Positions 4,900 through 30,836 of a DNA stretch of 64,000 nucleotides are shown piece by piece (the first letter of the stretch is position 1; each line of letters starts with the position of its first letter). This DNA comes from Candidatus Rifleibacteriota bacterium. GTDB lineage: Bacteria; Muiribacteriota; Ozemobacteria; Ozemobacterales; Ozemobacteraceae. The DNA lies in NCBI GenBank assembly GCA_018818125.1, contig JAHISQ010000101.1, forward strand, positions 14,977 through 78,976. The letters are read 5' to 3'. The translations under genes were made by a program, and so were the position numbers. The notes under the pieces are model-generated. The model was given only the letters and a program-made list of their open reading frames with translations, did not search any database and was not told the DNA's origin.

Positions 4900-5017
4900 C
4901 AATTTTCCAATACCACAACTCAGTTAGCCGCTGGTAGCAAACTTGCCTACTGGTTCATTGAAGCACTCTTCCATCTGGGAAGATGACAATGACTATTCTA
5001 TATACCCGGAGAAAAAA

Positions 5018-6355: not shown

Positions 6356-6430
6356 CCGCTGTCATTGGGCATTTTGCCGGCTATTCTACTGTTCTCGAAA
6401 TGAATAGTATCCTGGCGCGCCGCCCAGCTC
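6355..6430 (+). repeat. degenerate duplicate of the 3-prime end of the FtsX permease gene
   Basis: 6355-6414 matches 4738-4797 at about 54/60 nt (GCCG.TG.CATTG.G.ATTTTGCCGGCTAT.CTACTGTTCTCGAAATGAATAGTATCCTG); 6415-6430 matches 4852-4867 (GCGCCGCCCAGCTC) with the intervening about 55 nt deleted. Confidence 0.6.
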
Positions 6431-6459
6431 AAAACAGATTTTCGAAAAGGAGCCTCATT

Positions 6460-10875: not shown

Positions 10876-10942
10876 TTTATTCCTCCAGATAGAATTTGAT
10901 TTAATCAATATCACCTGTATGATATTCTTTTGAGAAGTCTAC

Positions 10943-10964
10943 GTCTGTTAAATGAATGTAAAAT
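10943..10964 (-). promoter_or_regulatory. conserved 22-nt motif GTCTGTTAAATGAATGTAAAAT (copy 1 of 3), candidate OmpR-family operator
   Basis: Near-identical copies at 14671-14692 and 16940-16961, all 70-180 nt upstream of minus-strand start codons; contains the direct repeat TGTTAAAT..TGTAAAAT with 11-bp periodicity. Confidence 0.35.
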
Positions 10965-10999
10965 CGAGTAAGAGCAGACGGTGCATAAAAAATCTGATT

Positions 11000-12378: not shown

Positions 12379-12562
12379 TTTGAATACCGCCTTGATTGTT
12401 TCTCTTTAATCAGCTGTCTACATTATAATATCGGGAAATCTACGCTGCTCTGTCATTAAGAAATGTTAAGCAATGTTAATCTGTAAGATGTAATTGCTTG
12501 GCTGACAGGTTTTGAACGCTTGAGACCAGAGTCAAACAACAGTTCGAATCGCAAGCAAGCAG

Positions 12563-13879
12563 TTAATCAATCATCATTTGCAACGAAACGAGATACTTTT
12601 TCTCGGAAGACTTGTCGTCATCGCTGTCTTTACTATTTGTTCTGCTATACTCGATCTCACCAGAACATTTTTTAGAAATATCGAACTTAAATCCGGTCTT
12701 GAACTTATTTTCATAAGCATCTTGCCCGTATCTGCTGATATCAAGAGAATTGCCAGTTGTATAAGTTTCAGTTCTCCGACTGAATTCCATAAACAGCAAA
12801 GTGTCGCGTGATAACTTCCAGGAAGGGGCGATTTCTATTGTCTTACGTTTAGAGGATCGATCGACCATACTGATGACAGGCGCATTTTCTTTTAATTTGC
12901 CGTCACCGTTTGCGTCAATCTTCGAAATAGTTTCATCATAAAGAAACAGCTCCTGATTGGTTTTTGAATCAACCTCTCCATATTGATACTGAATTCGAAG
13001 TCCAAATCTGGAGTAGAATTGTAAAGCCAACTCCAATCCGCCGTAAGGTAGTTTGTAGCTACGATTGCTGAAAGTGGAATTGTAATTTCGCCAACGATAT
13101 CCGACAAACGGCACGAGATTTAAATCAGAAAGTTTTTTATGTTTGTTTTTAATCAGAGCATATTTGTAAGCAAACTTGCCTTCAAAGTCATCATAAATAG
13201 CCGATGAATAAATTCGCTCTTCCCTGGTAATGTTACCGTTTGAATTCGCATCCTGTACACCTGAAAGATAATTCTTTTTGAACTTTCCAAAAGACAATTT
13301 TCCATCAAACTCCAGTTTGGCGTTTTCTCCAGCATCCCTTTCAAGTTTTATACGCCCTTCAGGAAAACTCCCTTTGGCATTCTTTGTGTAATAATTGTAG
13401 CGCAAAATACTGGTCATACTCAGATTGCCGGTCGCAGGATTTTTAGATTGAAACTTGGCGCCAATAGCAGGTGCAATGATTTGCTCAGAGATAGAATTCA
13501 TATCTGAATATCTATTTGTGGCTTGATCCGTTGCATCGTTTGTTGTCAGCCTGGTCTCTTGAGAATCGGAAAGATTGAAAATATTGTCAGAATACTCAAA
13601 ACCAATTTCAGAAAACAAACGTATCTTCTTCTGCTCAGTTATCTTATCTTTTTTCTTCTTTTTTTTAGAATCCTTAGCGCCAGGATCTGTGATTTCATCA
13701 GCAACGGCTACAAGTATAGCTGACTGATTTAAATTTTTAACAATATTTTCAGCTTCCAATGCTGTTTGGCTCTCATCGGGATGAATCTGAGCCATGCAAG
13801 GGAAAGGAAAATGTAGCAGCACCAAAAAAACACATGTTACCTGCAACAAAAAACAACAGGATTTTTTTCTATTCTTCAT
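12563..13879 (-). CDS. putative outer-membrane beta-barrel protein, Lys-rich N-terminal region
   Basis: Signal peptide MKNRKKSCCFLLQVTCVFLVLLHFPFPCMA; KKKKKKDK tract; alternating amphipathic beta-strand patterns ending in an aromatic residue; follows the VTC/DUF4956 pair on the same strand. Confidence 0.45.
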   Translation of the reverse strand: MKNRKKSCCFLLQVTCVFLVLLHFPFPCMAQIHPDESQTALEAENIVKNLNQSAILVAVADEITDPGAKDSKKKKKKDKITEQKKIRLFSEIGFEYSDNIFNLSDSQETRLTTNDATDQATNRYSDMNSISEQIIAPAIGAKFQSKNPATGNLSMTSILRYNYYTKNAKGSFPEGRIKLERDAGENAKLEFDGKLSFGKFKKNYLSGVQDANSNGNITREERIYSSAIYDDFEGKFAYKYALIKNKHKKLSDLNLVPFVGYRWRNYNSTFSNRSYKLPYGGLELALQFYSRFGLRIQYQYGEVDSKTNQELFLYDETISKIDANGDGKLKENAPVISMVDRSSKRKTIEIAPSWKLSRDTLLFMEFSRRTETYTTGNSLDISRYGQDAYENKFKTGFKFDISKKCSGEIEYSRTNSKDSDDDKSSEKKYLVSLQMMID

Positions 13880-14096
13880 TTATTTTCTCCATGGAGCGCC
13901 TATCTATAAGCTTTTCAAAAATTGCAATATCTTGCATCACCGAACACTATGGTAAGAGTCTGAATAAACACATCAATAATGATGGTGCTGAAATTCGTGA
14001 TCAATCTACGTAAATAATGATTGATGCTTGTTGTTAATTGAGCCAGACATCGTCGCGTTGAGATGCGACAATCTTTCGCCGGCATGGTTATTGGTA

Positions 14097-14600
14097 TTAT
14101 GCAGAAAGATTGATCATCAAGCCGCTTTGAAGAATTCCTTTTGCCTGAAGCTGCTCAATAATGCTTTGCTGGTCATCTTCAGAAAGATTGTTTAAATCAA
14201 AATTTTGCAGAATCTCAGACAAAGGTTGTAGTAAGCTTTCATTTAAAGTGTTACCAGAAGCGCTGACACTATTTCCTTCAGCTTCTCCAGACTTAGGCGG
14301 AGGAGGAGGTCTATTGCCCTTTGGTGCGCCCGTTTGCTGTGTCCCTGATTCATCTTCAGGTCTCAGCGCTCCAGGATCAAATCCGGCGCTTTTTATGACA
14401 TCTCCAAGGGATTTGCTCGGAGTAAAATTTGCGCTTTTCAGTTCAGATTTCAGTTTGGCAAGTGAACTTTCATCCATATTTTCAGAGTCATAATTGCTGA
14501 GTATTTCCTGTAGCTTCTTTGCGTCACTGATGCTTAGCTGACTACCAGATTGAGTTGACGAAAAAGAGGCGGTGTTGCTAGTGATACTACTAATTGACAT
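14097..14600 (-). CDS. hypothetical Ser/Gln-rich protein with two internal repeats (paralog B)
   Basis: ATG at 14600 after GGAGGA; 167 aa, collinear with paralog A; main difference is the absence of the GKGG insert in the PPPPPK region. Confidence 0.6.
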   Translation of the reverse strand: MSISSITSNTASFSSTQSGSQLSISDAKKLQEILSNYDSENMDESSLAKLKSELKSANFTPSKSLGDVIKSAGFDPGALRPEDESGTQQTGAPKGNRPPPPPKSGEAEGNSVSASGNTLNESLLQPLSEILQNFDLNNLSEDDQQSIIEQLQAKGILQSGLMINLSA

Positions 14601-14670
14601 TTTATTCCTCCAGATAGAGTTTGATTTAATCAACATCACTACCCGTAGAGTATTCTTTTGAGCAATCTAA

Positions 14671-14692
14671 GTCTGTTAAATGAATGTAAAAT
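14671..14692 (-). promoter_or_regulatory. conserved motif GTCTGTTAAATGAATGTAAAAT (copy 2)
   Basis: Identical to copy 1; about 70 nt upstream of the paralog B start and just after the histidine kinase stop. Confidence 0.35.
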
Positions 14693-14710
14693 TGAGTAAG
14701 CGAGTGTAAG

Positions 14711-16048
14711 CTACTGGCTAAAATACAACTCAATCTGAAACCCTTTTGGATCGGCATTTCTCAGGCTTACACTTCCATTGAGTTTCCTTACAATTCGGTT
14801 AACAATTGATAAGCCAAGTCCAGGGCTTTCACTGCCAAATTCCACTGAGCCACTGGAAAAAGGCACTAGCAATTCGGCAATCTTATCTTCAGGCACTCCT
14901 GGTCGCTGATCTTTGAAAACAATCCAAAACTTGGATATGCCATCTACTTGCTGGAGACTCAAAGAGATATTGATTTCTGAGTTTTGTGGCGAATACTTGA
15001 TACTATTTCTAAGAACGCTTTCACAGGCTCGCCGAAAAAGGAGAGGGTGAGAAACACACTGTAAGCTGGTTCTGTTCTTGAAAACAAGGTTGATCCTCTT
15101 ATTGTCAGCTTCTATTTGCAAATCTGCTAATAGATCATTAAGCAAATGATCTATTCTGAAAGACTCTTTTGGGCCCATTAGACCGGCATCAATTTTTGCT
15201 ACTGCAAGAATCTGATCAACCAGGCTTTTTATTCGGTGGCACTCCAGTTTTATCCTGCTAATTTCCTCTGAATATTTCTCTGGATCAGTCATTTCAATGG
15301 ATTCAATGCTTAACTGCAGGCGGGTCAAAGGCGATTTGAATTCATGAGAAATCTCATGAAAAAGCTTTTTCTGGCTGGAAACAAGGATTTCGAGATTTTC
15401 AGCCATTCGATTAAAACCTCGTGCCAGATCGCCGATTTCGTCTTCTCTGACAGTTAGTTGTTCACTTGTTCTGGCTGACAAATCATTGGTACCTAGTCGA
15501 AAAGACGTGTCTCGAAGATTTATCAATGGATTAATGATTGTTCGAGAGAGTCTGTAACAAAGAAAAAGCGCTACAGACAAAACGATTAGCAACCTGAAAA
15601 AAAACAACTTGTCTGCCAAGAATGATTCAATGAGACCCACAATAACAGGCCCTTCAAACATTAAAAAACCTGATTTGCCTTGTGAATAGTAAAACTTTTG
15701 AATAATTGTAACCCTGTCTCTTCCACGTTCTTTGTAAATATCCTTAGCACACAAAGACTCCATAGCCGGTTGAAAAGCTTTTGGAAGCTCTTTTTCAGCG
15801 TAAAACCTCCATACTTCAGGGCCATGACTTATCGCCAGAAGCTTCTTATTAAAATCTACCTCTCCATCTTTTTCAAGAATAGGAATACCTAACAGAAGAA
15901 TCATGTCGGCTCGATGGTTATATGCATCATCAATTGGCGGCGGGGGCCTGAAATCAGAAGTTAACGCAACAGTTAAAAATATTATGCCAAAGAAAAGAAT
16001 ACTAAAAAACGTAAAGCCCCAAAAAATCTGCCAGAAAATTGATTTCAT
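14711..16048 (-). CDS. sensor histidine kinase (two TM segments, HAMP, HisKA, HATPase_c)
   Basis: Periplasmic loop between two TM helices; H-box EISHEFKSPLTRLQLS; N-box and G-boxes (GFQIELYF, SPGLGLSIV); 4-nt overlap with the upstream response regulator gene. Confidence 0.85.
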   Translation of the reverse strand: MKSIFWQIFWGFTFFSILFFGIIFLTVALTSDFRPPPPIDDAYNHRADMILLLGIPILEKDGEVDFNKKLLAISHGPEVWRFYAEKELPKAFQPAMESLCAKDIYKERGRDRVTIIQKFYYSQGKSGFLMFEGPVIVGLIESFLADKLFFFRLLIVLSVALFLCYRLSRTIINPLINLRDTSFRLGTNDLSARTSEQLTVREDEIGDLARGFNRMAENLEILVSSQKKLFHEISHEFKSPLTRLQLSIESIEMTDPEKYSEEISRIKLECHRIKSLVDQILAVAKIDAGLMGPKESFRIDHLLNDLLADLQIEADNKRINLVFKNRTSLQCVSHPLLFRRACESVLRNSIKYSPQNSEINISLSLQQVDGISKFWIVFKDQRPGVPEDKIAELLVPFSSGSVEFGSESPGLGLSIVNRIVRKLNGSVSLRNADPKGFQIELYFSQ

Positions 16049-16761
16049 TTCTTTTCCTCTGGAGAAACAAAAATGACTCCAGCGTTTCTAATGGTTAAAA
16101 TTCGCTCTTCACCATTTGGCCTGCAACCAATTTTTTTCCTGACTCTGCTTAAATGCACATCAATTCTTCTGTCGATGGAGTGAAATCCTTCATCCAAAAG
16201 AGACTTGGAAAGATCTTCTTTGCTGACAACTTTGCCGCAATTCTGCATAAGCAGCTTCAACAGCTCGAATTCTTTGGTTCTCAATTCTATGGTCTGTCCT
16301 GTTTTTTTGAGCGACATTGATTCTAAGTTTAGCTCCAGGTCTTCAATACAAATGGTTGGTTTGTTTTCAGCATTTTCAGGCAACGAGCCAGCTTTGTTAA
16401 ATCTTCGTAAAACAGCGCTGATTCTTGCGCATAGCTCGCGAAAATAGAATGGTTTTGACAGATAATCGTCAGCACCTAATTCAAGCCCTAAAACTCTATC
16501 GAGCTCCTCACCACGCGCTGTCAACATAATGACCGGAATCTCAGATTCTCTTCTGAGAAGTTTAAGGATTTCGAATCCGTTGGTATCTGGAAAATTTACA
16601 TCCAGCAAGATTAAATCAGAGTTCAGACTGTTGCAAATTCCAAGATCTTTAACCGGGTCAGTGCTGTAGTGAAAGTCGTAACCCTGACTTGAAAAGTATT
16701 TTTTCAAGATCTCACAGAGCTCAAGATCATCATCAAACATTATAATTCTTGGCGAGACCAT
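16045..16761 (-). CDS. OmpR/PhoB-family response regulator (REC + winged-helix)
   Basis: REC motifs (DDD...DLILLDVNFPDTNGFEIL, K at SKPF); C-terminal trans_reg_C wing (ELRTKEFELLKLLMQNCGKVVSKEDL...RRIDVHLSRVRKKI). Confidence 0.85.
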   Translation of the reverse strand: MVSPRIIMFDDDLELCEILKKYFSSQGYDFHYSTDPVKDLGICNSLNSDLILLDVNFPDTNGFEILKLLRRESEIPVIMLTARGEELDRVLGLELGADDYLSKPFYFRELCARISAVLRRFNKAGSLPENAENKPTICIEDLELNLESMSLKKTGQTIELRTKEFELLKLLMQNCGKVVSKEDLSKSLLDEGFHSIDRRIDVHLSRVRKKIGCRPNGEERILTIRNAGVIFVSPEEKK

Positions 16762-16939: not shown

Positions 16940-16961
16940 GTCTGTTAAATGAACGTAAAAT
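16940..16961 (-). promoter_or_regulatory. conserved motif GTCTGTTAAATGAACGTAAAAT (copy 3) upstream of the response regulator gene
   Basis: 21/22 identity to copies 1 and 2; lies between the regulator start codon (16761) and the IS3 remnant. Confidence 0.35.
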
Positions 16962-18949: not shown

Positions 18950-19807
18950 TTGAGAAAAAAATATTTAGTGATTTTCTTGATCTTGTTTGTTCTTGTAACA
19001 CAGCACTGTTTCTGTCTGGTTCGTTGTATCACCCAGGAGGAAATATTTCTAGATCGCGGGAATTTAGCCTTATTCATTAACAAATCTCAACCAGAGAATA
19101 TTGTTGTGGGGCCAATTTATGGAAAATATTTTGAGAGTAATGATTTTGGGATAGCTTTCAAAATAATTTCAAGTTTTACACCCACACTTTTTGATAATTT
19201 TATAGATAGCAGCTTTAAGCAGCTTTACCAGCTTGAATTTGCCACCGACAGCCTTGTTTTAAATTTTAAAAAGACTGATGAAGCTGATTGGACTCCGACA
19301 AGTTTATCAGAATTTGTTGGCATGCTCGAATGGTCAAATTATTTAACAGGATGCAGTTATGGAAAAGTTCGGTTCTTTGAAAACTATGAATTAAACTCAA
19401 AGGTATCCGCACTTTTCTGTGTTTTACTGACTATTTTTGCTTCTATCTCTTTGAACAGATGCGTAGCGAAGGAAAAAAGAAATTATTTGTTTTGGCCTAC
19501 TGTTCTTTATTTTTCTTTTTTCTACTATTTGTTCCTCCTTGTTTTGCCGCAGTTTTGCGAAATTTTCCAAGGAATGTCGTTAAATAGATTACCTAACTCC
19601 ACGATTTGCTTATTGACTTCTTTTGATAGTTATTATGGGATGTTTCTTAATTCGATCGTATTTACCCTATTTTCGCCAACAATCTTTTTCCAACTTCGCC
19701 ATATTTTAACGGAACAAAAAGCAAAGTTCCTCCAGGGAGCATGGGTTCTACTTTTTCTTTCCTTCATGGCACTTATGGTTTTTTGTATCTTTATGCCAAT
19801 GCTTTAG
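18950..19807 (+). CDS. hypothetical polytopic membrane protein
   Basis: 285 aa; N-terminal signal/TM; a soluble domain of about 130 aa then four or more TM helices; ends 3 nt before the DDAH-like gene. Confidence 0.45.
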   Translation: MRKKYLVIFLILFVLVTQHCFCLVRCITQEEIFLDRGNLALFINKSQPENIVVGPIYGKYFESNDFGIAFKIISSFTPTLFDNFIDSSFKQLYQLEFATDSLVLNFKKTDEADWTPTSLSEFVGMLEWSNYLTGCSYGKVRFFENYELNSKVSALFCVLLTIFASISLNRCVAKEKRNYLFWPTVLYFSFFYYLFLLVLPQFCEIFQGMSLNRLPNSTICLLTSFDSYYGMFLNSIVFTLFSPTIFFQLRHILTEQKAKFLQGAWVLLFLSFMALMVFCIFMPML

Positions 19808-19837
19808 GTTGTGCGCAGCGTGACATCGCTAAAAAAC

Positions 19838-20650
19838 ATGAAAATTGCTATTGTTAATAGACCTAATTTCGCGCTCAAACAGTGCGAATTGACTTTTCTA
19901 AATCGAGTATCAATAGATCTGGCAACAGCACAAAAACAGCACTCAAACTATATTGAAGCTCTAAGAAATACTGGTGCCCAGGTAGAAGTGCTGGAGGTGA
20001 ATCAGACGTCTCCAGACTCTGCATTCGTTGAAGACGTAGCAGTCATTCTCGATGAGTTAGCTGTAATTACATCTATGGGAATTGCGGCTCGCCGGGAAGA
20101 GGTTATCCTCATGGCAGATCTGATCGCAGGCTTCCGCCAAGAAGTCCGGCATATTCCGCTTCCCGCAACCATTGAAGGCGGCGATGTCTTGAGGGTAGGA
20201 AAAACACTCTTCGTCGGTGAAAGTTCACGCACCAACCGGGCTGGAATCGCAACGCTTGGGGAGATCGTCAGGCCTTTCGGATACAACGTTGTGTCGGTGA
20301 GAGTTCATGGTTGCCTTCATTTAAAAACCGGCGTTACTGCTTTAAATGACGAAACATTTATTCTCAATCCCGACTGGATCGACCCATCGCCTTTTGAAAA
20401 TTTCAAACTAATTCATGTAGCTTCCGACGAACCATGGGGAGCCAATGTGTTACGAATTGAGAATTGTCTAATCGTTAATGCTTCTTATCCACGAACCGCT
20501 GACCGGATCGATGCATTAGGACTTCGGAGTGATAGAGTTTACATATCTGAGTTCGGAAAAGCCGAGGCCGGGCTAACTTGCATGAGTCTGGTTTTCGAAA
20601 AAACGATAACAAGTGCGATAGCCACGTTGCCCAAATCAGGCAAGAATTGA
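19838..20650 (+). CDS. dimethylarginine dimethylaminohydrolase (DDAH)/amidinotransferase-superfamily hydrolase
   Basis: ATG at 19838 (the supplied ORF starts at GTG 19811); motifs GGDVL, VRVHGCLHLKTG and C-terminal EFGKAEAGLTCMSLVF with the catalytic Cys, as in DDAH / arginine deiminase-like enzymes. Confidence 0.65.
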   Translation: MKIAIVNRPNFALKQCELTFLNRVSIDLATAQKQHSNYIEALRNTGAQVEVLEVNQTSPDSAFVEDVAVILDELAVITSMGIAARREEVILMADLIAGFRQEVRHIPLPATIEGGDVLRVGKTLFVGESSRTNRAGIATLGEIVRPFGYNVVSVRVHGCLHLKTGVTALNDETFILNPDWIDPSPFENFKLIHVASDEPWGANVLRIENCLIVNASYPRTADRIDALGLRSDRVYISEFGKAEAGLTCMSLVFEKTITSAIATLPKSGKN

Positions 20651-21676
20651 GTTTCGCACCAAATCGACATTGGCGAGCAACGAATCAATCCAGAAATTTA
20701 CCTGTTCGGCATTTGTCAGATCATTCCAGTGCGAGAAGATCGGAAAATACGGTCCGAGTGGTGTTCGCCCAGGCTGCGGGTGAACTTCGATCATAAAGGA
20801 AAGCTCCTTGGGGTTCTTCCGTTCAAGAGCTCTTTTTAAAAGCATTTTCAGTCCATTCACTCCGAAAATTCCCGGAAGAAGATGAGAACCCTTAAAGGGA
20901 AAAGGAATCCGTATTTTTTGCAGAAAACTAAGGTGATCGCTGACATGCCATCGGCTCAGAGTCGAGCATGGATGCCCATCGTGCAGATGAAAGTGAAGAG
21001 GGCCTTCAAGCCTGGCAAGACGATCGAGAATCTCCATGGTCAGCTCAAAAGCTTCAAGACACGAAAGCTGAATGTCCGCAATAAAACTCGGAAGTTCTGG
21101 CGAATCTGGCGTGAACTCAAACACATTTCGGGTCGGATGCCTGCTTGCAAATTGTTGACGGCAAAAGGTGAGAGCCAGATGGCAGATATCAAGACAGGGA
21201 AAAACCCTTTGACGACCTGGTGTCACCTCGAACAGAGTCAGGAAAAAATCCGGATCGAGCATAGCGGCATATTCGACAAAAACGAATGGAGATTGCTCAA
21301 AAGACCGGAGGCGATGATCTAACTCAAGTAGAGCTTTAAATGTCTTTTCCGGACAGCGTGAAAAATCCTTTTGATCATGAACGATCAATCCGAATATCTT
21401 TCCGGGAGCTGTATCGACGTAGGATATGATTTCTGAAACATCTTCCGGCACAAGAACGTTCAGGTTTCTTAAAAGATGGAGCGAGCATTCATGATTTTCA
21501 GGAAGGAATTTGACAAGCTCCCTGGCTTCTTCAAAGGATTCTGGATACATCTCAACCCCAATTCCGGCTTCGGTCAGTCTTGTCCGGAAAAGTCCGTAGA
21601 GGGAATCATCGCCATCAATTCCCTGTTTTCCGCACATCGCCAGAATTTTTGGAAATGCGTTTTCTTTTTTCATCAT
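20636..21676 (-). CDS. sugar phosphate isomerase/epimerase (xylose isomerase-like TIM barrel) family protein
   Basis: LHFHLHDGH metal-binding motif and MIEVHPQ, N-terminal TIM-barrel pattern; convergent with and overlapping the 3-prime end of the DDAH-like gene by 15 nt. Confidence 0.45.
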   Translation of the reverse strand: MMKKENAFPKILAMCGKQGIDGDDSLYGLFRTRLTEAGIGVEMYPESFEEARELVKFLPENHECSLHLLRNLNVLVPEDVSEIISYVDTAPGKIFGLIVHDQKDFSRCPEKTFKALLELDHRLRSFEQSPFVFVEYAAMLDPDFFLTLFEVTPGRQRVFPCLDICHLALTFCRQQFASRHPTRNVFEFTPDSPELPSFIADIQLSCLEAFELTMEILDRLARLEGPLHFHLHDGHPCSTLSRWHVSDHLSFLQKIRIPFPFKGSHLLPGIFGVNGLKMLLKRALERKNPKELSFMIEVHPQPGRTPLGPYFPIFSHWNDLTNAEQVNFWIDSLLANVDLVRNSILA

Positions 21677-21677
21677 G

Positions 21678-22886
21678 TTACCGCTTCGCTATACTGGTTG
21701 GGGCCATCGGCACCAGGCCAGGAATATTGCCACCGATCTGCGAGAACATTATTGCATACATTGGCGCCTCAAGCTTTCGCGCGGCATTCAACAGACCATC
21801 GTTCGCGCTGCGGGGAAACATCGAGTCCTTTGACAAAAGTGCGTTTACAATTTTTTCGATTGCTGATGGTTTTCTTGTGCCAAGAATATCGTCATAGGCT
21901 CTGCGCCAGCCGAAAAGATGGCAGACGATTCCTTTCTCACCAACCTTCCATAGAGGGGCCGCTTGTTGCGGGGATATCGCGGTTTTGCCAGAATTAAGGT
22001 GGTAAACTCTTGAGAGATCAGGCGTGAGCGCCGCAAAATTCTGTCGGTCAATAAACCTCTTCACCTCGGCGCTTCCAGAGATAACTGTTGCCGGTCTTAT
22101 TCGCAGCAACGCGCGCGGTTCTAGAGTTTCTACATGGAATACACCATCAATGCGTTTGCCGTAAACATACCAGCCCTGACCATTGCTTGTGGCGCTTTCT
22201 ATCTTATCCGTAGAGGTAACAGGTATGCTGTCAGCCGGAAAATCTGGCATGCACATCCGCACAACCTCTCTTTTGCCCGACTGAAAGCTTCTGGTAGCCG
22301 AGTCAAAATGCTCGACCAATCTCAAGCCGCTTTCTTCTGCGCCGACAAATCGCACCAGTCCGTATTCATCACCCGCGATTTGAATTGGCATGTCTGAGAT
22401 AACCAGGGAGTTGCCCTGTCTAACAGGATTTATCAACATAACTTCAATGTCGTCGACCATGTGAGCACCAGCAATTGACTCAAGAGGACTAACCGATTTC
22501 CAGCCGTTAAGCCGCCTTGGCAGCAAAGATTTGAATTTACCTTCGGATTTTGCAGCAGCTTCTTCGTCGATGGCAACATCAACAGTCAGATCTTTGAACC
22601 AGCCGTTTTCTGGTTTACTGAAATCCCAGCAAAGCCTGAGAATCTTACCGCACAGCTCTTTGTCTGGACTGGAGTCCAATTGTATCCACACAGAGCCGTC
22701 ACTTTCTCGTTGATCTTTCTCGGGAAGAATCAGGCAGCCCGACCATGCAGAAATCTCACGATAATTTGCTGCGAATTCAGCAGATTTCTGGTTTGTAAGC
22801 AGTTCCCGAAGGTCATCAGCCAGCAACAGTTGCGGTAACAGCGCACAAATAATCGCCAGAATAAAACATTTCACTGTGTACCTCAT
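21678..22886 (-). CDS. hypothetical secreted protein
   Basis: Signal peptide MRYTVKCFILAIICALLPQLLLADD; 402 aa; start of the two-gene minus-strand unit with the TIM-barrel gene (1-nt gap). Confidence 0.5.
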   Translation of the reverse strand: MRYTVKCFILAIICALLPQLLLADDLRELLTNQKSAEFAANYREISAWSGCLILPEKDQRESDGSVWIQLDSSPDKELCGKILRLCWDFSKPENGWFKDLTVDVAIDEEAAAKSEGKFKSLLPRRLNGWKSVSPLESIAGAHMVDDIEVMLINPVRQGNSLVISDMPIQIAGDEYGLVRFVGAEESGLRLVEHFDSATRSFQSGKREVVRMCMPDFPADSIPVTSTDKIESATSNGQGWYVYGKRIDGVFHVETLEPRALLRIRPATVISGSAEVKRFIDRQNFAALTPDLSRVYHLNSGKTAISPQQAAPLWKVGEKGIVCHLFGWRRAYDDILGTRKPSAIEKIVNALLSKDSMFPRSANDGLLNAARKLEAPMYAIMFSQIGGNIPGLVPMAPTSIAKR

Positions 22887-23000
22887 TTTAACCCCTCAGA
22901 ATTACTGCTTTGTCATCAAATCAAATCTTATTCAAAATTATACTATAGTAAGTTGATTCTCTCGCCAACACCTGGTAAAAAATCACACGCCGATCGGCAA

Positions 23001-23030
23001 GAAAACAACTATTGGCTTGCCAGTTCTACT
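23001..23030. repeat. direct repeat copy 1 (GAAAACAACTATTGGCTTGCCAGTTCTACT), duplicate of the 3-prime end of the VOC gene
   Basis: 23/24 identical to 26416-26439; reverse complement encodes V-E-L-A-S-Q-stop, the C-terminus of the VOC protein at 26418. Confidence 0.6.
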
Positions 23031-23174
23031 CCTATCACTCATTTTGCTCAACTCTCTGATAACAGTATTATTAAAAAACAACCATGTGAATTTGTAAGCA
23101 TATTATATTTGAAACAATCACTACGAAAGAATATAATCAACTCGACAAATAATACACATAACTCCTAGAGGTAA

Positions 23175-23723
23175 ATGATGCTGAAAAGAATATTTGTTTT
23201 TTTCATATTTGCTCTTTCGTTTTTTCCTGTTTCTGCTGAAAAAATCGATGTTAACGAACTCCTTGATCAGGCTGACATACTTCTAAAAAAAGCCTGGGAA
23301 GCAGATGATAATGCCCAATTTGACAAGAGCAAAAAGCTTTACGAACAATATCTCCAATTCCTTACGCAGGCTGCTGATGCCGGTTCTGCTAACACATGCT
23401 TCAAGTTAGCACGGCACTACAGTATAACCCATTCACCCGAAAGCATTAAATGGGCTAAAGAAGGCGCTGAAAGGGGCGATCCAGAAGCAATGGAATTGCT
23501 CGGGCAAAAATATTTCGTAGGCAAAGAGATAGAACAAAATTGGCTTAAAACTCATTATTATTACATGCTTGCCATAAAAATTGGTGGCGAAAAACATATG
23601 AGAGGAACTGTAGAACGTGTCAGACGGCTTGAAAGGCGTTTAACCGCCGAGCAGATAGCAAACACAAAAAAACTGCTGGAAGAGTTTAAACCCAAAACAA
23701 TCTCGTTCGGCCAAAAGGAATAA
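23175..23723 (+). CDS. Sel1-like repeat protein, secreted
   Basis: Signal peptide MMLKRIFVFFIFALSFFPVSA; Sel1-type repeats (AADAGSANTCFKLARHY..., KWAKEGAERGDPEAMELLGQKYFVGKEIEQNWLKT). Confidence 0.6.
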   Translation: MMLKRIFVFFIFALSFFPVSAEKIDVNELLDQADILLKKAWEADDNAQFDKSKKLYEQYLQFLTQAADAGSANTCFKLARHYSITHSPESIKWAKEGAERGDPEAMELLGQKYFVGKEIEQNWLKTHYYYMLAIKIGGEKHMRGTVERVRRLERRLTAEQIANTKKLLEEFKPKTISFGQKE

Positions 23724-23726
23724 ACA

Positions 23727-26321
23727 ATGAGATCAATGAATAAATCAGTATGTTTAAAATTATTCGTATGCTGCTGCATCTTCTTTTCAGATGATCTTCA
23801 TGCGCAGACAAATTCACACACTAATGAAATAAAACCACAACACAATTTGTCGAAAGATAGATATTTATCAAATGATAAGAAGGCAAGCGGAAGTGAAAAC
23901 ACCAGCCTCCAAAAACACCACCAACACTTAAATATATCGCAAGAATTAGCTCAAACAACAGCAATGAATGAGGCAATCGCAAATCATGCCCCTGCATCGG
24001 ATATAGTAAGAATGATAGAAAACGGTGCCAATGTTTTTCATAGAGAGCGAATGTCTAACAAAACTCCTCTTCATGAAGCAGCAAAGCATGAAGACTATCT
24101 TGATGTCGTAAAAGCTTTGATAAAACGAGGTGCTGATGTTAACGCAAAAACGCAATCAGGATACAGCCCTTTGTATTATGCCGACAGCAGCAATATAGAA
24201 ATAGCAAGAACCCTTATCGAAAACGGTGCCAATGTAAATGAAACAACAGCGCGCAACGGGGAAACTCCGCTGATGCACCTCGCAAGTGTTTCTCCGAATC
24301 CAGATATTGTAAATCTTCTGATAGAAAACAAGGCTGATATAAATGCCGTTGCAAAGAACGGTAGCCCTGTCCTGGCATTTGTTTCAGACTATCGCAGTTC
24401 TTCGCCAAAATCAATTGACAGCAGAAACCCTGAAAATATAAAAAGACTGCTAAAATTTGGATGCAATCCAGATTCTGCCAACACAAAAGATGGAACAACT
24501 GCATTAATGTATGCCATCAACAGTGAAAATAAGGAGATAATATCTATTCTTCTAGATGCAGGAGCAGACAGAGTTATTGCCGACAAAGATGGCAACATAC
24601 CTTTAAGCTATGGATTGTTGTGCGCAAACAGTCTGGAAATAACCAGACTGCTGCTGCAAAAAGAGTGCGACATCAATGCCCAAAACAACGAAGGAAATAC
24701 CGCATTACTGCTTGCCGCATATACGACAGACAATCCCGAACTGATAGATTTGCTCATAGAACATGGTGCTGACATCAGTATTACTGATAAATGGAAGAAT
24801 TCCGCCCTGATCTGTGCGGCCGAGAAAAATACGAACCCACTGATCATTGCCGCACTTATTGACAAGGGACTTCCAATTGACCGGGGAAATGGCATAGATA
24901 CAACTCCTCTGATGAACGCTGTCAGTTACAATCCGAACTCTGAAATTGCCGAACTCTTACTGGAAAAAGGTGCCAGCGTTAATAAAAAAACAAAATATGG
25001 AAAAACAGCATTGATGAATGCCGCTCAATTCAGTCACCCGGAAAGAGTCAGTATGCTGCTTAAAAGGGGTGCCTTGATTAATGCGAAAGATAATCAGGGA
25101 AACAATGCACTCATATGTGCGGTAAAATTTAGCAAATCAATTCAGCCCCCTAAACCAGATAGAACAAAACCCGGATTGCTGGATGATGACAAGACCAGCA
25201 GTAATTCACAGAAAAGAAGCCCCAGTTACAAAATCATCCAGATTCTACTAGATAATGGCGCTGATATTAAAGTCACAGACAGTAAAAAGAACAATCTTCT
25301 TTGCGCTCTGTTTGAATTCCCCTCCCCGACCGACCCTGATGTATTGAAACTTCTCATAGAAAAAGGCGTTGATGTAAATGAAGCGAACAATTTAGGCCGC
25401 ACCCCACTGTATAAAGCTCTTGTATGGTCAGCAGACGTAAGCATCATTTCGATACTTCTGGCAAATGGCGCGAAAATTGATCACAAGGACGAATTTGACG
25501 AGTCAATAACTGATGTTGCCTTAAAAGCCAAAAATGCGAAAGAACTAATCCCTTTGCTTCAGAAACATGGTAAACCTGAAGCAAACAGTGAAGTGATGAT
25601 TATTGAGGCAGCCAGAAATTGTAAAAACCCGGAAATATTACAATCTATTGTAAGTAGCGGAGCAGATATAAAGGCTTTCAACCAGCATGGCGAAAACCTT
25701 GTTACCGTAGCCGCAAAAAATAACAATCCCGAAGTTCTAAAATACGTCCTGAGTCTTGCCCTGGATGCTAATATGGCAAACAAAGATGGTTTTACTCCGC
25801 TGATGATATCTGCAGACAACTGCAACCTGATTAATGCAGCAATATTATTAGAATATGGCGCCAAAATAAGTTCACCAGGACAACAAGTGGACTACTCCGA
25901 AATATCTCTTGCGGCCAATTCCGGCAAAAAAACTGAGAATAGGATCGCCATGCTTGATTTCCTTTTCCAAAATGGAGCAAAGCTTTCAACAGCAAAGGAT
26001 GCATACGGCAAACTACTTTCTGAACTGGCAGAACGCGACGAAAGTGCCGAAGTCATTTTATCTCTTGTTAAACACGGAGCAGATATAAATTCGCGTAATC
26101 CCCAAGAGAAAACCCCGTTAATATCTGCAGCAATAAACACCAGATACGGAAAAACAGTTATTGCCGAGTTGCTTGATGCCGGTGCAGATGCAACACTTAT
26201 GGACGACAATTGCAGCCGCGCTTATGACTATGCAGAAATATTCCAGGGAAAGCAAATCAGCGATCCTGTGTTTTTACGACTTGAAAAAGAATGCGCCAAG
26301 CTCGACAACAACTTGAAGTAA
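23727..26321 (+). CDS. ankyrin-repeat protein, 864 aa, secreted
   Basis: Signal peptide; about 20 ANK repeats with the canonical TPLH.AA..G..dvvklLl..GAdvNa pattern (e.g. TPLHEAAKHEDYLDVVKALIKRGADVNAKTQSGYSPLYYA). Confidence 0.85.
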   Translation: MRSMNKSVCLKLFVCCCIFFSDDLHAQTNSHTNEIKPQHNLSKDRYLSNDKKASGSENTSLQKHHQHLNISQELAQTTAMNEAIANHAPASDIVRMIENGANVFHRERMSNKTPLHEAAKHEDYLDVVKALIKRGADVNAKTQSGYSPLYYADSSNIEIARTLIENGANVNETTARNGETPLMHLASVSPNPDIVNLLIENKADINAVAKNGSPVLAFVSDYRSSSPKSIDSRNPENIKRLLKFGCNPDSANTKDGTTALMYAINSENKEIISILLDAGADRVIADKDGNIPLSYGLLCANSLEITRLLLQKECDINAQNNEGNTALLLAAYTTDNPELIDLLIEHGADISITDKWKNSALICAAEKNTNPLIIAALIDKGLPIDRGNGIDTTPLMNAVSYNPNSEIAELLLEKGASVNKKTKYGKTALMNAAQFSHPERVSMLLKRGALINAKDNQGNNALICAVKFSKSIQPPKPDRTKPGLLDDDKTSSNSQKRSPSYKIIQILLDNGADIKVTDSKKNNLLCALFEFPSPTDPDVLKLLIEKGVDVNEANNLGRTPLYKALVWSADVSIISILLANGAKIDHKDEFDESITDVALKAKNAKELIPLLQKHGKPEANSEVMIIEAARNCKNPEILQSIVSSGADIKAFNQHGENLVTVAAKNNNPEVLKYVLSLALDANMANKDGFTPLMISADNCNLINAAILLEYGAKISSPGQQVDYSEISLAANSGKKTENRIAMLDFLFQNGAKLSTAKDAYGKLLSELAERDESAEVILSLVKHGADINSRNPQEKTPLISAAINTRYGKTVIAELLDAGADATLMDDNCSRAYDYAEIFQGKQISDPVFLRLEKECAKLDNNLK

Positions 26322-26415
26322 GCGCATGTATCCAAGAGGATAATGTTAAATCCATTTTTCCTCGACTGCGCTGCAAGCGGCCGAATTCAGCATAAGCGTC
26401 GAGACGAAAAAAAAA

Positions 26416-26439
26416 AACTATTGGCTTGCCAGTTCCACT
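26416..26439. repeat. direct repeat copy 2 (AACTATTGGCTTGCCAGTTCCACT) overlapping the VOC gene stop codon
   Basis: See copy 1; preceded by an A11 homopolymer (26407-26417). Confidence 0.6.
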
Positions 26440-27119
26440 TTGAGGCGCTCAGGATCTTCAAAAAAAACGGCATAAAATTCGGGCCCAGCAGCATGAGGAT
26501 GACGGTCTTCATATAAAATTACAGCGCCGCGTTCACGCAGTTGCGACGAGATTTCGTCTACTTGTTGGCGACTCGTCGCATGAAAAGCCAGATGATTCAA
26601 GCCGGGTCGACAGCGATGAAAAGGCGTTGCGAGATGCCTGCCTTCAGCCTGCACAAACACCAGATAAGTGTCGGATAGTTTGAAACTTACACCGTCCGGC
26701 CATTTCTGATACTGTTTATAACCAAGAACCGAGAGAAACCAGGCCCAGAATTCTTCTGTTTTTTTGAGATCCGAGCAGTAAATCTCAACATGATGCAGCT
26801 TGCCAGCAGAAGAAAGCGCTTCACTCACACAGGTTTCTTCAGTTATTTCAGAATTCTGCGGATCGAGAATTTCGCCTTTAAACACCGTGAAAAGCTTTTG
26901 AATCGCCGGATCAGAATCAATGCGCTGAATGTTGGAACTGGCATCGGCACCCGAGAACCTGACCACCTCGGTGCGCTGCGTCGAGTCTTTGGCGTCGCGC
27001 AAAAGAAGCACTTCAACCTCTGCGTGCGACCGATAGAGAACCAGCACGTCTTCCTGAAGCTGGAGATAGCGTTTTTCAGACCCTTCGCGAATCTTATATC
27101 GATAAATACGTGTCAGCAT
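26418..27119 (-). CDS. VOC-family (glyoxalase/bleomycin resistance/dioxygenase fold) protein with extra N-terminal domain
   Basis: C-terminal half HHVEIYCSDLKKTEEFWAWFLSVLGY...GLNHLAFHA...AVFFEDPERLKVEL is a typical VOC fold; likely start MLTRIYRYK at 27119. Confidence 0.65.
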   Translation of the reverse strand: MLTRIYRYKIREGSEKRYLQLQEDVLVLYRSHAEVEVLLLRDAKDSTQRTEVVRFSGADASSNIQRIDSDPAIQKLFTVFKGEILDPQNSEITEETCVSEALSSAGKLHHVEIYCSDLKKTEEFWAWFLSVLGYKQYQKWPDGVSFKLSDTYLVFVQAEGRHLATPFHRCRPGLNHLAFHATSRQQVDEISSQLRERGAVILYEDRHPHAAGPEFYAVFFEDPERLKVELASQ

Positions 27120-27361
27120 AATTGCCCAACCTTTTATTTTGCAGATCGACAAAAACATAGAATCCAGCTCATTTAACCACAGGCTCACCCCACGGGGCAA
27201 AGGTAATTAAACCTTCCACACCTGCGAGGCCTTTTAGATTCCTTTATGTTGAATGAACGATTTATCGGTATTAATGCAAAGTCAGTCGAATTTCTGGTAA
27301 AATGAGCGAAGTAGATCTGTATGTCATATCGTATACATTCGTTAGTCAGGAGATGCTTGGC

Positions 27362-28216
27362 ATGAATCGAAAAATGTTTCGCAGCTTAATCTGGATTCTC
27401 ATTCTACAGCTCATAATTGGCCCGGCCATGCTATTGGCACAGACCGATGCTGCGCCGAAAACAAACAGTGCCCTCGAAACCATGCTGAACTACGACTATA
27501 AAACCTACGCCGGCAAGGTTCTCGTCCAACAGATCCGTGAAGATCTTGCCGCCGGCCGGCCAATAGATATGAATAAAGTCAGCAAAGAATTGACCGGCAA
27601 GCCTTATCTGACTCAGGTCGCCATCGGAGGCGGTTCAGAAGTTGCCGCAAATGTTCTCCAGTATGGCATGACCGGAGTTTGCCCTCCTTACGGTATGATT
27701 GCCGGGGCAATCATCGCATCGACCATGCAGGCTTTCGGTGGCGCCGTTGGGTATGAGTCAAGCGAGGCAATGAAGTCAGGCAAAACGCAGACGTCAAAAC
27801 AGATTCTGGGCAAAGCACTTTCAAGCATCGACATGCCTGAATTTATTGGCCAGACTACTGGTGGAGTGATTGGCTCAATGGTAGGGCAGGCATTGATTCC
27901 CATACCCATCGTCGGGATGATGATCGGAAGTATTGTCGGCAGTCTGGTTGGCAGCGCCGCAGTAAACCTGCTGCGCAAAATTCCAGCCTTTGCCTCTGCC
28001 TTCGACGCCATGCAGAAGAAGTGGGAGAAGATTGGCAAATCAATGATGGAAAATGAAGAGCCAGAGCCAGCAACAGACTCACCACAAGTGACCGTGACCG
28101 CAACCGCAGACACAACCAGCCAATCGACAACAACTCAACCAGAGACAAACCCGGGCAGTCTCATGCATGTCGCTCCAACAGCAGCAGACAGCCTGGCAAG
28201 CGAAAACGGCCAATAA
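27362..28216 (+). CDS. hypothetical membrane/secreted protein with glycine-zipper segments
   Basis: ATG 27362 ten nt after AGGAG; signal peptide; GxxxGxxxG zippers (GMIAGAIIASTMQAFGGAVG, GGVIGSMVGQALIPIPIVGMMIGSIVGSLVGSAAV); Thr/Ser/Gln-rich tail. Confidence 0.45.
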   Translation: MNRKMFRSLIWILILQLIIGPAMLLAQTDAAPKTNSALETMLNYDYKTYAGKVLVQQIREDLAAGRPIDMNKVSKELTGKPYLTQVAIGGGSEVAANVLQYGMTGVCPPYGMIAGAIIASTMQAFGGAVGYESSEAMKSGKTQTSKQILGKALSSIDMPEFIGQTTGGVIGSMVGQALIPIPIVGMMIGSIVGSLVGSAAVNLLRKIPAFASAFDAMQKKWEKIGKSMMENEEPEPATDSPQVTVTATADTTSQSTTTQPETNPGSLMHVAPTAADSLASENGQ

Positions 28217-28232
28217 TTTCAGTCAGGAAAAC

Positions 28233-28898
28233 TCAGAATTCACCGGTTACTCCGATAATTGGGCCGCTGAATTCCTGTTTTTTGGCACGGCTTTCCTCAT
28301 CAGAATTATTCAGTGAAGTCAGTAAACCCGGTTTAGTCTGTTCTGGTGCTGTGTTATCAGTTCTGCTCATCTGCGAATCGCGGCCGCCTTTTTTAAAGCC
28401 AAAACCAAGCATCCAGCTTGGCTGAGATCTTTCAGTCGGCCGGTTCAGGCGATATCCGATCAGATATCGTTCCGACTGGCTGTCACGCTTGTCGTCATCA
28501 GCGTTACTACGAGGCAAATCGCTGCTACTATAACGTGGTTGCTGCATTCTTTCGCGCTTCTCGGCGCTGAAAATCGGTATAATCCATCGTTTGTCGCTGC
28601 TTCCCTCTTTAAGATCAAAGCGCTCAAGAATATTTTCGCCCGTTTCCCGCAGAGATTGAAACAAAGGATTTTTCTCGAGCAGCTGGAGCGGCCCGCGCTT
28701 TTCTGGTGGGTCATTCTGGTCATTCAGCAGCAAAGAATTCTGATAGCTTTCTCTGGACTGAAATTCGAATTGCGTGTCATTTACCCAGGCCCCCAGAGAC
28801 GCATTTTTGTTGTCAACGGCAGTAAACCCGGAACTGCACACACCCAAACACAAAGCAAAAACTCCGCATATTTTCTGAACAGTCCTGGTCGGGCGCAT
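28233..28898 (-). CDS. hypothetical secreted protein
   Basis: Signal peptide MRPTRTVQKICGVFALCLGVCSSGFTA; 221 aa, charged low-complexity regions. Confidence 0.4.
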   Translation of the reverse strand: MRPTRTVQKICGVFALCLGVCSSGFTAVDNKNASLGAWVNDTQFEFQSRESYQNSLLLNDQNDPPEKRGPLQLLEKNPLFQSLRETGENILERFDLKEGSSDKRWIIPIFSAEKRERMQQPRYSSSDLPRSNADDDKRDSQSERYLIGYRLNRPTERSQPSWMLGFGFKKGGRDSQMSRTDNTAPEQTKPGLLTSLNNSDEESRAKKQEFSGPIIGVTGEF

Positions 28899-29017
28899 AA
28901 TTGTTTTCTCCGCAGAATCTAATCATTATCCAAGTACACTATCGACTAGACTTGAAGATTTATCATGCGAAAAGGTCGCGCGACTGCCCGGCAAGTGTAA
29001 AGTTTTATTAAGCTTGA

Positions 29018-29422
29018 TCAGCGAAAATCTGCGTATTTTACACCACTGATGCTGAGTTCTTCGCTGGCAGAATGAAACAGTGGCCGGCCCTGGGCGTCCT
29101 GGGCAAGAACCCAGTCAAACTGGCCGGTAAATGGGTCTGAATAAGCCTGACGCAGGAAGCGATTGCCGACGCTGTCGCGCAGCAGTTCTTCGGTTCCGGT
29201 CGGGGGGCGGTCGTGGCAGCGCTCGAACTTGTTAACGGCGCGCTTAAATTCGCCGAGAATAAAGCGCAACTGGTCTTCTTTGCCACGGCGGACTTCGAGA
29301 TCTACACGCGGAATCACAACGGCAAGACTTATTGCCAGAAGCACCACCGAGATGCTTATTATCAGGAGAGAGACGCCACGGCGGGCATTAGCAGGTGCTG
29401 TGATCGCCTCAAAACTCGGCAT
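29018..29422 (-). CDS. pseudopilin-like protein with degenerate prepilin leader
   Basis: N-terminus RRGVSLLIISISVVLLAISLAVVIP resembles a class III signal but lacks the +5 Glu; C-terminal DPFTGQFDW...SGVKYADF parallels the neighbouring GspG-like protein; 14-nt overlap with it. Confidence 0.5.
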   Translation of the reverse strand: MPSFEAITAPANARRGVSLLIISISVVLLAISLAVVIPRVDLEVRRGKEDQLRFILGEFKRAVNKFERCHDRPPTGTEELLRDSVGNRFLRQAYSDPFTGQFDWVLAQDAQGRPLFHSASEELSISGVKYADFR

Positions 29423-29792
29423 AGCTTATTCCATCAAGACTGAGGCCGTCAGCGCCAGATTTAACGTCATAAACATCATTACCCTGCTGCGAAGGCACGG
29501 TGACCCAGGTATCATTCTTTTCGGTAAAAGGATCGGGCGGAATGCTGCGAATATAGCCTTGTTTTACCAGTGTTTCGAGGGTTTCTGGCCACTGTTCGTG
29601 ATCTTTAAAGTAATCGTTGAGAGTATTGCGAAAAACGTAGAGGTCTTTTTTCAGCGCAGTCTCTTTGGTGCGTTTAATGGTGCGGCCATACATCGGCACA
29701 ACGGTGACGTAAAGCAATCCGATAATGGCAACGACAACACTCATTTCGACAAGTGTAAAGGCCACTCGGTTCTTTTGCAAATTCACGAACAT
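29409..29792 (-). CDS. GspG/PulG-like major pseudopilin (prepilin-type N-terminal cleavage/methylation domain)
   Basis: AFTLVEMSVVVAIIGLL prepilin motif (G-F-T-L-V-E); 127 aa; C-terminal DPF/W/YDV..SGADG pattern as in GspG. Confidence 0.75.
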   Translation of the reverse strand: MFVNLQKNRVAFTLVEMSVVVAIIGLLYVTVVPMYGRTIKRTKETALKKDLYVFRNTLNDYFKDHEQWPETLETLVKQGYIRSIPPDPFTEKNDTWVTVPSQQGNDVYDVKSGADGLSLDGISYAEF

Positions 29793-29795
29793 AGT

Positions 29796-30836
29796 TTACC
29801 CCCTGGTACCCCGGTAAAAATCCAGAAAGTTTTCGCCGGCAACGCGATCAAGTTCATTCTTAAGATACAGCTTTTGAACCGATTGTGCAAACAACTGACT
29901 GCCCTGACCGGCACTCGCGATATTGGGTTCGATCTGTGTGATTTTGCCCTTCTGAATGATGCTCGTTACGGTACTGTTCATGACCAGAGTCTCGTGAACC
30001 GGTATAATGCGCTTGCCAACCTGATCGGCAATCAGAGCCTGCGAAACAACGCCCTGCAGATTGTCGGCAAGAACCTGGCAGACGAATTCACGATCGCTCT
30101 CGGGGAAAGAAAAAATGAATTTTTCGAGCGTGTTCACTATGCCAAGCGTCTGCATGCTCAATATTACAAAATGGCCGCCGGCAACGTATTCAATGATGCT
30201 CTTGAATGGTATCTCGCGCTTAAGATCGCCAATTACCAACACATCAACATCCATACGTTTCGCGAAGTTGATACCCTGATCAATTACAAAAATATCTTTC
30301 CGAAACTGGCGCTGCGAAATGCGACAGCGCTTCGGCTCGAAATTGAATTCAATCGGATCTTCGATTATCAGAATATGCCTGGAATGGCGCTGGTTCATGC
30401 GCTCAACAATGCTCGCCAGAGAAGTCGAAATACCTGAGCGGGCCGGACCGGCAATGATAAAAACACCTTTTTTGGCGTCGAGAAATGGCACCAGCGTATC
30501 AGGGAACTTGATTTCTTCGAGCGTAGGAATCTTGCTGTCGATGATTTTTATCAGCGCAACCGGCTTCTGCTGTGAATGAAACAGGGTAAGACGATAGTTA
30601 CATGGCGGCTTACCAAAAAAATTAGCTTCAAAGGAGCTGTTTTTATTGAATTTTTCAATATCTTCCGGGCTCAGCAAGGCTGCTAACAGGTCGTTCATGT
30701 CGGCTTCCTGGACTGGTGGGGAGTCCATGTGGCGGAGAAATTTGTTTTTGCGAATAAGCGGACGAGCTGAGATCTTGAGGTGAAGCTCAGTACCACCTGA
30801 TTTCTTTACGTTTTCGATGAGTTTTTTGATATCCAT
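29796..30836 (-). CDS. PilT-family ATPase paralog with degenerate catalytic motifs (pseudo-ATPase)
   Basis: PilT N-domain (ELHLKISARPLIR) and core architecture, but Walker A is GPARSGISTSL (catalytic Lys replaced by Ile), Walker B/Asp box is DVLVIGDLKR (Glu to Asp) and His box TLHT is replaced by SMQT. Confidence 0.75.
   Translation of the reverse strand: MDIKKLIENVKKSGGTELHLKISARPLIRKNKFLRHMDSPPVQEADMNDLLAALLSPEDIEKFNKNSSFEANFFGKPPCNYRLTLFHSQQKPVALIKIIDSKIPTLEEIKFPDTLVPFLDAKKGVFIIAGPARSGISTSLASIVERMNQRHSRHILIIEDPIEFNFEPKRCRISQRQFRKDIFVIDQGINFAKRMDVDVLVIGDLKREIPFKSIIEYVAGGHFVILSMQTLGIVNTLEKFIFSFPESDREFVCQVLADNLQGVVSQALIADQVGKRIIPVHETLVMNSTVTSIIQKGKITQIEPNIASAGQGSQLFAQSVQKLYLKNELDRVAGENFLDFYRGTRG

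Follow-up and report, generated by a model that had tools for sequence, protein, structure and literature searches.

How does a pair of genes come to lie between a gene and a duplicate of that gene's own 3′ end, with no recombinase gene recognised nearby? The question is raised by a 64,000-nucleotide (nt) stretch of DNA from Candidatus Rifleibacteriota bacterium (contig JAHISQ010000101.1, positions 14,977 to 78,976; the whole stretch is called the window here, and coordinates refer to it). In this window, a Sel1-like gene and an ankyrin-repeat gene are enclosed by two copies of a short direct repeat, one of which forms the end of a gene of the VOC/glyoxalase family. An initial annotation took the arrangement for the footprint of site-specific integration. 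We consider it modestly probable that the pair arrived by duplicative insertion through recombination, either of the Campbell type or by homology-facilitated illegitimate recombination. A 3.4-kb Sel1-like/ankyrin islet would thus have been gained horizontally and placed behind the resident VOC gene, at its 3′ end.

The end of the VOC gene is duplicated across the insert

The 24-mer AACTATTGGCTTGCCAGTTC(T/C)ACT is present at two sites, 23007-23030 and 26416-26439, with 23 of 24 positions identical, and is found nowhere else in the window with up to three mismatches allowed. Its chance expectation is 0, as none of 100 shuffles contained any match at ≤3 mismatches. The right copy corresponds to the last seven codons and the stop codon (...KVELASQ*) of the VOC gene (26418-27119, minus strand), which encodes a 233-aa protein of the Pfam Glyoxalase/VOC family. 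The sole mismatch between the copies falls on the third base of the Val codon (GTA/GTG) and is synonymous. The left copy, 144 nt ahead of the ATG at 23175, is an orphan: same-frame stop codons lie directly upstream of it, and no minus-strand open reading frame (ORF) runs into it. The repeat, the VOC end in its downstream copy and the orphan state of its upstream copy were all described by the initial annotation and are confirmed here, as is the run of 11 A beside the right repeat (26407-26417).

The repeat extends leftwards to 43 nt (22988-23030 versus 26397-26439; 35/43 identical). The extra 19 nt match at 12 of 19 positions, a score equalled by only 0.1% of the 19-mers of the window. Mismatches are unevenly distributed, with 7/19 in the post-stop part versus 1/24 in the coding part (Fisher p = 0.014). 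To the right of the 24-mer, the flanks of the two copies share no similarity at all, giving a sharp boundary, and 23031-23174 holds no trace of VOC-like sequence. The left copy (22988-23030, minus strand) therefore comprises an orphan VOC terminus, with a 24-nt core at 23007-23030 (VELASQ*, stop codon at 23009-23011), plus 19 nt of post-stop sequence. The right copy (26397-26439, minus strand) comprises the functional VOC terminus at 26416-26439 plus 19 nt of post-stop sequence that include the A run.

Over 19671-24233 and 24801-30774, the window is matched at 100% identity by two Logan contigs from run SRR6514274, L104 and L002 respectively. Both junctions thus lie inside independently assembled contigs, which makes an assembly artefact an unlikely source of the repeat.

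The insert carries a Sel1-like gene and an ankyrin-repeat gene

The insert begins with an AT-rich leader (23031-23174, plus strand; GC 0.35) containing a promoter-like site, TTGAAA-17-TATAAT at 23109-23137, that agrees with the consensus at 11 of 12 positions. The Sel1-like protein gene (23175-23723, plus strand; 182 aa) follows, and after a gap of 3 nt comes the ankyrin-repeat protein gene (23727-26321, plus strand; 864 aa), so spaced that the two form a probable operon. The N-termini of both proteins resemble signal peptides, with a charged segment and then a strongly hydrophobic one (N-terminal hydropathy of the 182-aa protein, 2.9). This is consistent with a predicted signal peptide on each, and both proteins are probably secreted. 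Between the convergent ankyrin and VOC genes lies a spacer (26322-26396) with an imperfect inverted repeat, CTCGAC...GTCGAG (26361-26404); no canonical terminator was called in it, and its fold z-scores are -0.5 to -0.6.

The 864-aa protein matches the Pfam families Ank_2 (1.3e-84, 279 bits) and Ank (1.2e-76, 249 bits) above the curated cut-off. The label Sel1 given to the smaller protein holds in part. The 182-aa protein has no Pfam match, even at E up to 10, and a word-indexed search of 5.8 billion clustered proteins returned only the protein itself. However, an exhaustive phmmer search gave 13,081 multi-stretch matches, and all six that were sampled are strong PF08238 Sel1-repeat proteins. 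Its identity as a divergent Sel1-like repeat protein is thus indirectly supported, through its phmmer relatives.

No orthologue of the pair was found in about 20 related loci (described below) or in the protein database, and an exact-protein look-up located the ankyrin protein on the source contig only. Two candidate orthologues of the 182-aa protein were rejected, a 183-aa gene beside VOC in L003 (E = 0.57) and a Sel1 gene near VOC in L005, which has only generic 28% repeat similarity. Among viral contigs, neither insert protein has a close relative, and matches are either absent or of the generic repeat kind (22-32% for the ankyrin protein). A literature search combining Riflebacteria and ankyrin found no paper.

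In composition, which the initial annotation had proposed to test, the pair differs from its flanks, with GC of 0.40-0.41 and GC at third codon positions (GC3) of 0.37, versus 0.49/0.47 for the VOC gene and 0.49/0.49 for the 402-aa gene on the other side. The deviation is modest, however, and synonymous codon choice in the pair is not atypical, so composition backs a separate origin weakly. Taken together, the low GC3, the promoter-like site, the lack of an orthologue and the orphan, read as a displaced VOC end, support the proposal that the pair is a horizontally acquired insertion.

Related loci place the VOC gene and the DNA behind the orphan in the host

Scanning genomes with the PilT gene from the window yielded about twenty Riflebacteria loci. 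The order PilT-PilT-pseudopilin-pseudopilin is kept across these ~20 loci, and the 284-aa gene that neighbours VOC in the window is found in five of them. In none is the VOC, ankyrin, Sel1-like or 402-aa gene adjacent to the PilT, pseudopilin or 284-aa genes.

A protein identical to the VOC protein carries the name of a Candidatus Riflebacteria metagenome-assembled genome, and VOC homologues in other Riflebacteria show 72-73% identity, with different neighbours in every relative examined. In two relatives, the same PilT/pseudopilin genes are followed 9-18 kb downstream by the VOC gene, with its orientation kept. In HGW-Riflebacteria-1, it is ~16 kb past the 284-aa gene, with order and orientation preserved (L012 and L005 overlap at 100%), and in L098 it is 9 kb past the pseudopilins. 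These positions indicate that the VOC gene is resident here and borders a variable region. The VOC C-termini after KVEL all differ, and ELASQ occurs in 0 of 17 VOC homologues. The incoming copy would thus stem from the organism's own or a very close lineage and does not represent a conserved motif. Beside the five VOC homologues examined for it, no orphan duplicate of a VOC end was present.

The sole truly syntenic relative is the L006/L009 locus, with 77-84% nucleotide identity. Here, 379 bp separate the 284-aa gene from the 402-aa gene homologue, with no VOC, ankyrin or Sel1-like gene present. The intergenic DNA at 22887-23008, upstream of the 402-aa gene and presumably the original region downstream of VOC, aligns with the L006 spacer in a collinear global alignment that is significant up to 23006-23012 (z 3.7-3.9; 0-1 of 2000 shuffles) and falls to z 1.5 once the 24-mer is included; strong blastn homology stops at 22930. 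From these alignments, host sequence runs from the left as far as the stop codon of the orphan, as would be expected if the orphan were the original VOC end, still in its original context. Homology to L006 resumes sharply at 27169, in the upstream region of the 284-aa gene (27169-27361; score 23 versus a null of 8.5 ± 1.4; 0 of 500 shuffles). In the left copy only, a 6-bp inverted repeat (GGCAAG/CTTGCC, 14-nt spacer, 22995-23021) is centred near the end of the L006 homology (23008/23009); it is missing in the right copy, and its fold is not significant.

A second gene-end duplication in the window

An 83-nt direct repeat links 4715-4797 to 6332-6414 with 88% identity and resumes past a 56-nt gap (4715-4899; 6332-6432). 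Copy 1 forms the 3′ end of a MacB/FtsX permease gene that is intact, and copy 2 is an orphan MacB remnant with a 56-nt internal deletion, just past an outer-membrane efflux gene (4943-6355). This efflux gene takes its last eight codons from the MacB orphan, read in a different frame, which indicates an illegitimate join. GC3 of the efflux gene is 0.38, versus 0.48 and 0.59 for its neighbours. For the gene that follows, the mechanical ORF start (6400) falls inside the orphan, and the true start is probably the ATG near 6460 (MKKIALY...). By codon position, the differences in the orphan number 5:4:3, which is uninformative on homeologous origin versus neutral decay.

As judged from these repeats, the MacB case has the same architecture as the VOC locus: a duplicated gene end and an orphan displaced past an insertion, with no recombinase found in the window. 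In contrast to the VOC locus, its cargo is an ordinary operon partner, and the joint is within coding sequence. The duplication around the efflux gene favours general recombination over a dedicated att system.

The window also contains a weak direct repeat (28187-28206/28981-29000; 16/20, p about 0.008) around a 221-aa gene (28233-28898) that L011 and L012 lack; the last codons of the 284-aa gene form part of this repeat.

Duplicative recombination is the favoured explanation

We propose a model in which the incoming DNA carried a copy of the VOC terminus beside the ankyrin gene, about 43 nt made up of seven codons, the stop codon and ~19 nt. Two routes would lead to the present structure. In the first, a circularised fragment would have recombined with the chromosomal VOC end by a Campbell-type single crossover. 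In the second, a linear fragment from a close relative, with the order VOC-ankyrin-Sel1-like, would have used VOC homology as its anchor and been closed by an illegitimate join 21 nt before the recipient's stop codon. By either route, the incoming copy would now complete the VOC gene, and the recipient's own terminus would have been displaced by 3.4 kb, still joined to its original downstream DNA before the 402-aa gene. Both the direction of the event and the recombination route are what we infer from the scar. The islet is probably immobile now.

The similarity between the two copies is graded: 23/24, then 12/19, then an abrupt stop. This is as expected of homologous gene ends from slightly diverged sources. 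It fits Campbell-type or illegitimate recombination, and it also fits an attP that mimics the gene end. Homology-facilitated illegitimate recombination and Campbell-type single-crossover insertion of foreign DNA have been described in the naturally transformable bacteria Acinetobacter, Pseudomonas stutzeri and Streptococcus pneumoniae. The locus shares with such events that no dedicated recombinase is needed and that one homologous anchor is combined with one arbitrary joint, and a duplicated anchor segment is possible there too. Both the graded similarity at the VOC end and the MacB joint inside coding sequence fit this picture. The window also encodes type IV pilus ATPases and pseudopilins. 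The locus differs in that the mechanism is deduced here from its product, with a homology of 24-43 nt at the lower limit for such recombination.

Several observations weigh against duplicative recombination into a resident VOC gene. A homology of 24-43 nt is short for RecA-dependent recombination. No donor, circular form or second copy of the cassette was found in the related loci and collections searched. The initial annotation had proposed looking in related genomes for an empty site; none of the related loci examined has VOC abutting 23008, and the only syntenic relative, L006, is without VOC too. The block that L006 lacks, about 23009-27168, includes VOC, so that VOC may have come along with the pair; alternatively, all three genes may have been lost from L006. 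The compositional deviation of the pair is modest when set against all genes of the window (z about -1.3), and the blocks 10363-16761 and 18950-19807 are equally low in GC.

Site-specific integration and other alternatives

The classic alternative is that an attP carrying the VOC terminus integrated into an attB at the VOC 3′ end by means of a tyrosine or serine recombinase, which was later lost or acted in trans. Islands in gene 3′ ends, where the end is rebuilt by the attP of the element, are well known from tRNA-gene islands and from integrative and conjugative elements (ICEs) such as SXT in prfC. As in integrative elements generally, the insert lies between direct repeats and its target gene is restored. 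The likeness to islands, prophages and ICEs at gene 3′ ends goes further, as the gene-side copy completes the ORF, the displaced end keeps the downstream DNA and, in islands and ICEs, the cargo differs in composition. The sharp boundary on one side with imperfect similarity on the other resembles core-plus-arm att sites, and the foreign-looking composition of the cargo and its own promoter-like site would also agree with this explanation.

Nevertheless, no Pfam family of integrases, recombinases or transposases was detected among the main ORFs of the 64-kb window, which also contains no tRNA gene and no Rfam match. The element is merely 3.4 kb in length and has two cargo genes, and the target is the C-terminus of a lineage-specific protein, a very narrow target that differs from the conserved tRNA or housekeeping gene ends used by islands and ICEs. 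The other VOC homologues examined have no orphan end beside them, and no second occurrence of the element or site was seen in related loci or in the viral, phage and plasmid collections. The insert DNA matched no phage or plasmid record. The 18-mer core had two exact matches in viral contigs, which did not extend and are at chance level for a collection of that size. Likewise, no further copy of the 24-mer, which the initial annotation had suggested looking for as a sign of a cassette array, and no further copy of the cassette was encountered in the window or in the collections searched. Finally, the window has a similar duplication around an efflux gene that is not mobile. The initial interpretation is therefore supported as regards an insertion and a displaced gene end, but its specific claim of site-specific, integrase-mediated integration is not supported, in view of the missing recombinase, the lack of an empty VOC site among the loci examined, the absence of recurrence, the VOC homologues without an orphan, the parallel MacB case and the modest compositional deviation. 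Given the missing integrase, the lineage-specific target, the lack of recurrence and the parallel non-mobile case, we regard integrase-mediated insertion as unlikely, though it deserves some weight.

Other types of mobile element leave different marks. DDE transposons and insertion sequences are marked by a transposase, terminal inverted repeats and a target-site duplication of 2-15 bp; here, the duplication is 24-43 nt and imperfect, and no terminal inverted repeats at the insert ends are among the pairs listed. Xer-dependent integrative elements (IMEX) integrate at chromosomal dif, a 28-bp XerC/XerD site; the repeat described here is situated in a coding end, and its inverted motif is only 4-5 bp with a 2-nt spacer.

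The same final structure and the same graded similarity would also result from two steps, in which a second VOC copy arose, either with the pair or by duplication, and the original VOC gene was then deleted except for its last 24 nt and the downstream DNA. Deletions within orphans do occur here, as the 56 nt missing from the MacB orphan illustrate. However, this history needs two events where one suffices, and the insert leader retains no VOC-like trace (23031-23174). We consider it improbable.

A cassette array built by a site-specific system is more doubtful still. The VOC gene and the Sel1-like/ankyrin pair would then be two cassettes, with ~20-nt boxes at 22989, 26398 and 27141. L006 would hold the single empty site. 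In favour of such an array, the block absent from L006 is exactly 23009-27168, which begins at the stop codon of the orphan and ends 47 nt upstream of where VOC starts. Where this block ends on the right, a possible degenerate post-stop box (27141-27164; GCAGATCGACAAAAACATA versus GCCGATCGGCAAGAAAACA) matches the box at 22989 at 14 of 19 positions. Matches of ≥14/19 to the box occur at 5.5e-5 of positions. The L006 site also shows a weak alignment to both boxes, and extending the L006 alignment leftwards at the 27141 box gives p of about 0.01-0.03. On the other hand, a generic local-alignment test of 22930-23174 against 27120-27229 is not significant, and the box was defined post hoc and carries little information. 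The sequence match thus makes the 27141 box at best a weak candidate for a third repeat copy.

Neither a recombinase nor a folded structure was found to go with such an array. The 43-mer contains no RYYYAAC/GTTRRRY boxes and no folded hairpin of the attC type, DNA folds in both junction regions are no better than those of shuffles (z -0.6 to +0.2), and neither junction has a terminator. The locus shares with integron cassettes, and with clusters of attC sites lacking an integrase (CALINs), the small gene units, the short repeated sites, the lack of a nearby integrase and a boundary at a stop codon. It differs from them in having no attC architecture, in that the repeat is a copy of the coding end of a neighbouring gene, and in that the insert has its own promoter-like site, which integron cassettes usually lack.

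It is tempting to speculate more broadly that Riflebacteria possess cassettes served by an integrase in trans, in which genes or pairs are added successively at a ~20-nt box, a GC-rich palindrome and an A-rich tract, directly after stop codons. We give this notion marginally less credence than the array itself. It would make L006 an empty site and the other repeat-bracketed genes of the window products of the same process.

Least credible is an origin of the repeat by chance or through misassembly, or a function for it as a motif that has nothing to do with insertion: five occurrences in the window of the 9-mer CTGGCAAGC, part of the 24-mer, versus about one expected speak for it, but the shuffles and the independent Logan contigs speak against chance and artefact, and the copies have no Rfam family, stable fold or terminator and fall in different plus-strand frames. 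As a recombination motif common to the ends of the VOC and 284-aa genes, CTGGCAAGC was rejected and treated as a coincidence, since the end of the 284-aa gene is native (homologous in five relatives) and the 9-mer excess is small.

Gene turnover and other repeats in the window

Gene content differs in every Riflebacteria relative between the pseudopilins and the 284-aa gene, and likewise upstream of the 284-aa gene. HD and CorA genes are present in L006, nothing in L011/L012 and about 3.6 kb in L016; the loci compared were L006/L009, L010-L012, L016 and 27120-29017 of the window. This comparison of gene orders suggests a local hot spot of gene turnover beside the type IV pilus genes.

The 402-aa protein (21678-22886) has four relatives in the protein database, where its family has four members, and none in the genome collection; in the search for an empty site, exact-protein look-ups returned the source strain alone. 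The 402-aa protein is without a ~198-aa internal segment of its 600-aa L006 homologue (L006 6115-7917), and nothing in the window corresponds to L006 7103-7685. One distant homologue carries, from its source, the label of a predicted Abi/CAAX-family protease.

A direct repeat of ~620 bp (10354-10972/14088-14700, 87%) consists of paralogous 183-aa and 180-aa genes with their upstream regions, and brackets a low-GC block (0.33-0.38) encoding DUF4956, a VTC-domain protein and a 438-aa protein. The 22-nt motif GTCTGTTAAATGAA(T/C)GTAAAAT is found at three sites (10943-10964, 14671-14692 and 16940-16961), upstream of the two paralogous genes and of a response-regulator/histidine-kinase operon (16761-14711, minus strand). 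It may be a candidate operator of that two-component system.

Discussion

The scar described here is of a known and fairly ordinary kind, in which a small islet sits at the 3′ end of a gene with a duplicate of this end on its flank. It opens no new mechanism and resolves no long-standing question. It is worth recording for the uncultured phylum in which it occurs and for its cargo, an ankyrin and Sel1-like pair. With at least two gene-end duplications in 64 kb and no integrase found, the window also advises caution before short flanking repeats are read as att sites.

For the organism, the locus provides a clean, independently assembled example of an uncultured lineage gaining a pair of probably secreted, eukaryote-like ankyrin and Sel1-like proteins, with a scar from which the direction of the event can, by inference, be read. 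Together with the MacB case, it suggests that gene gain at gene ends without an integrase may be recurrent in this genome.

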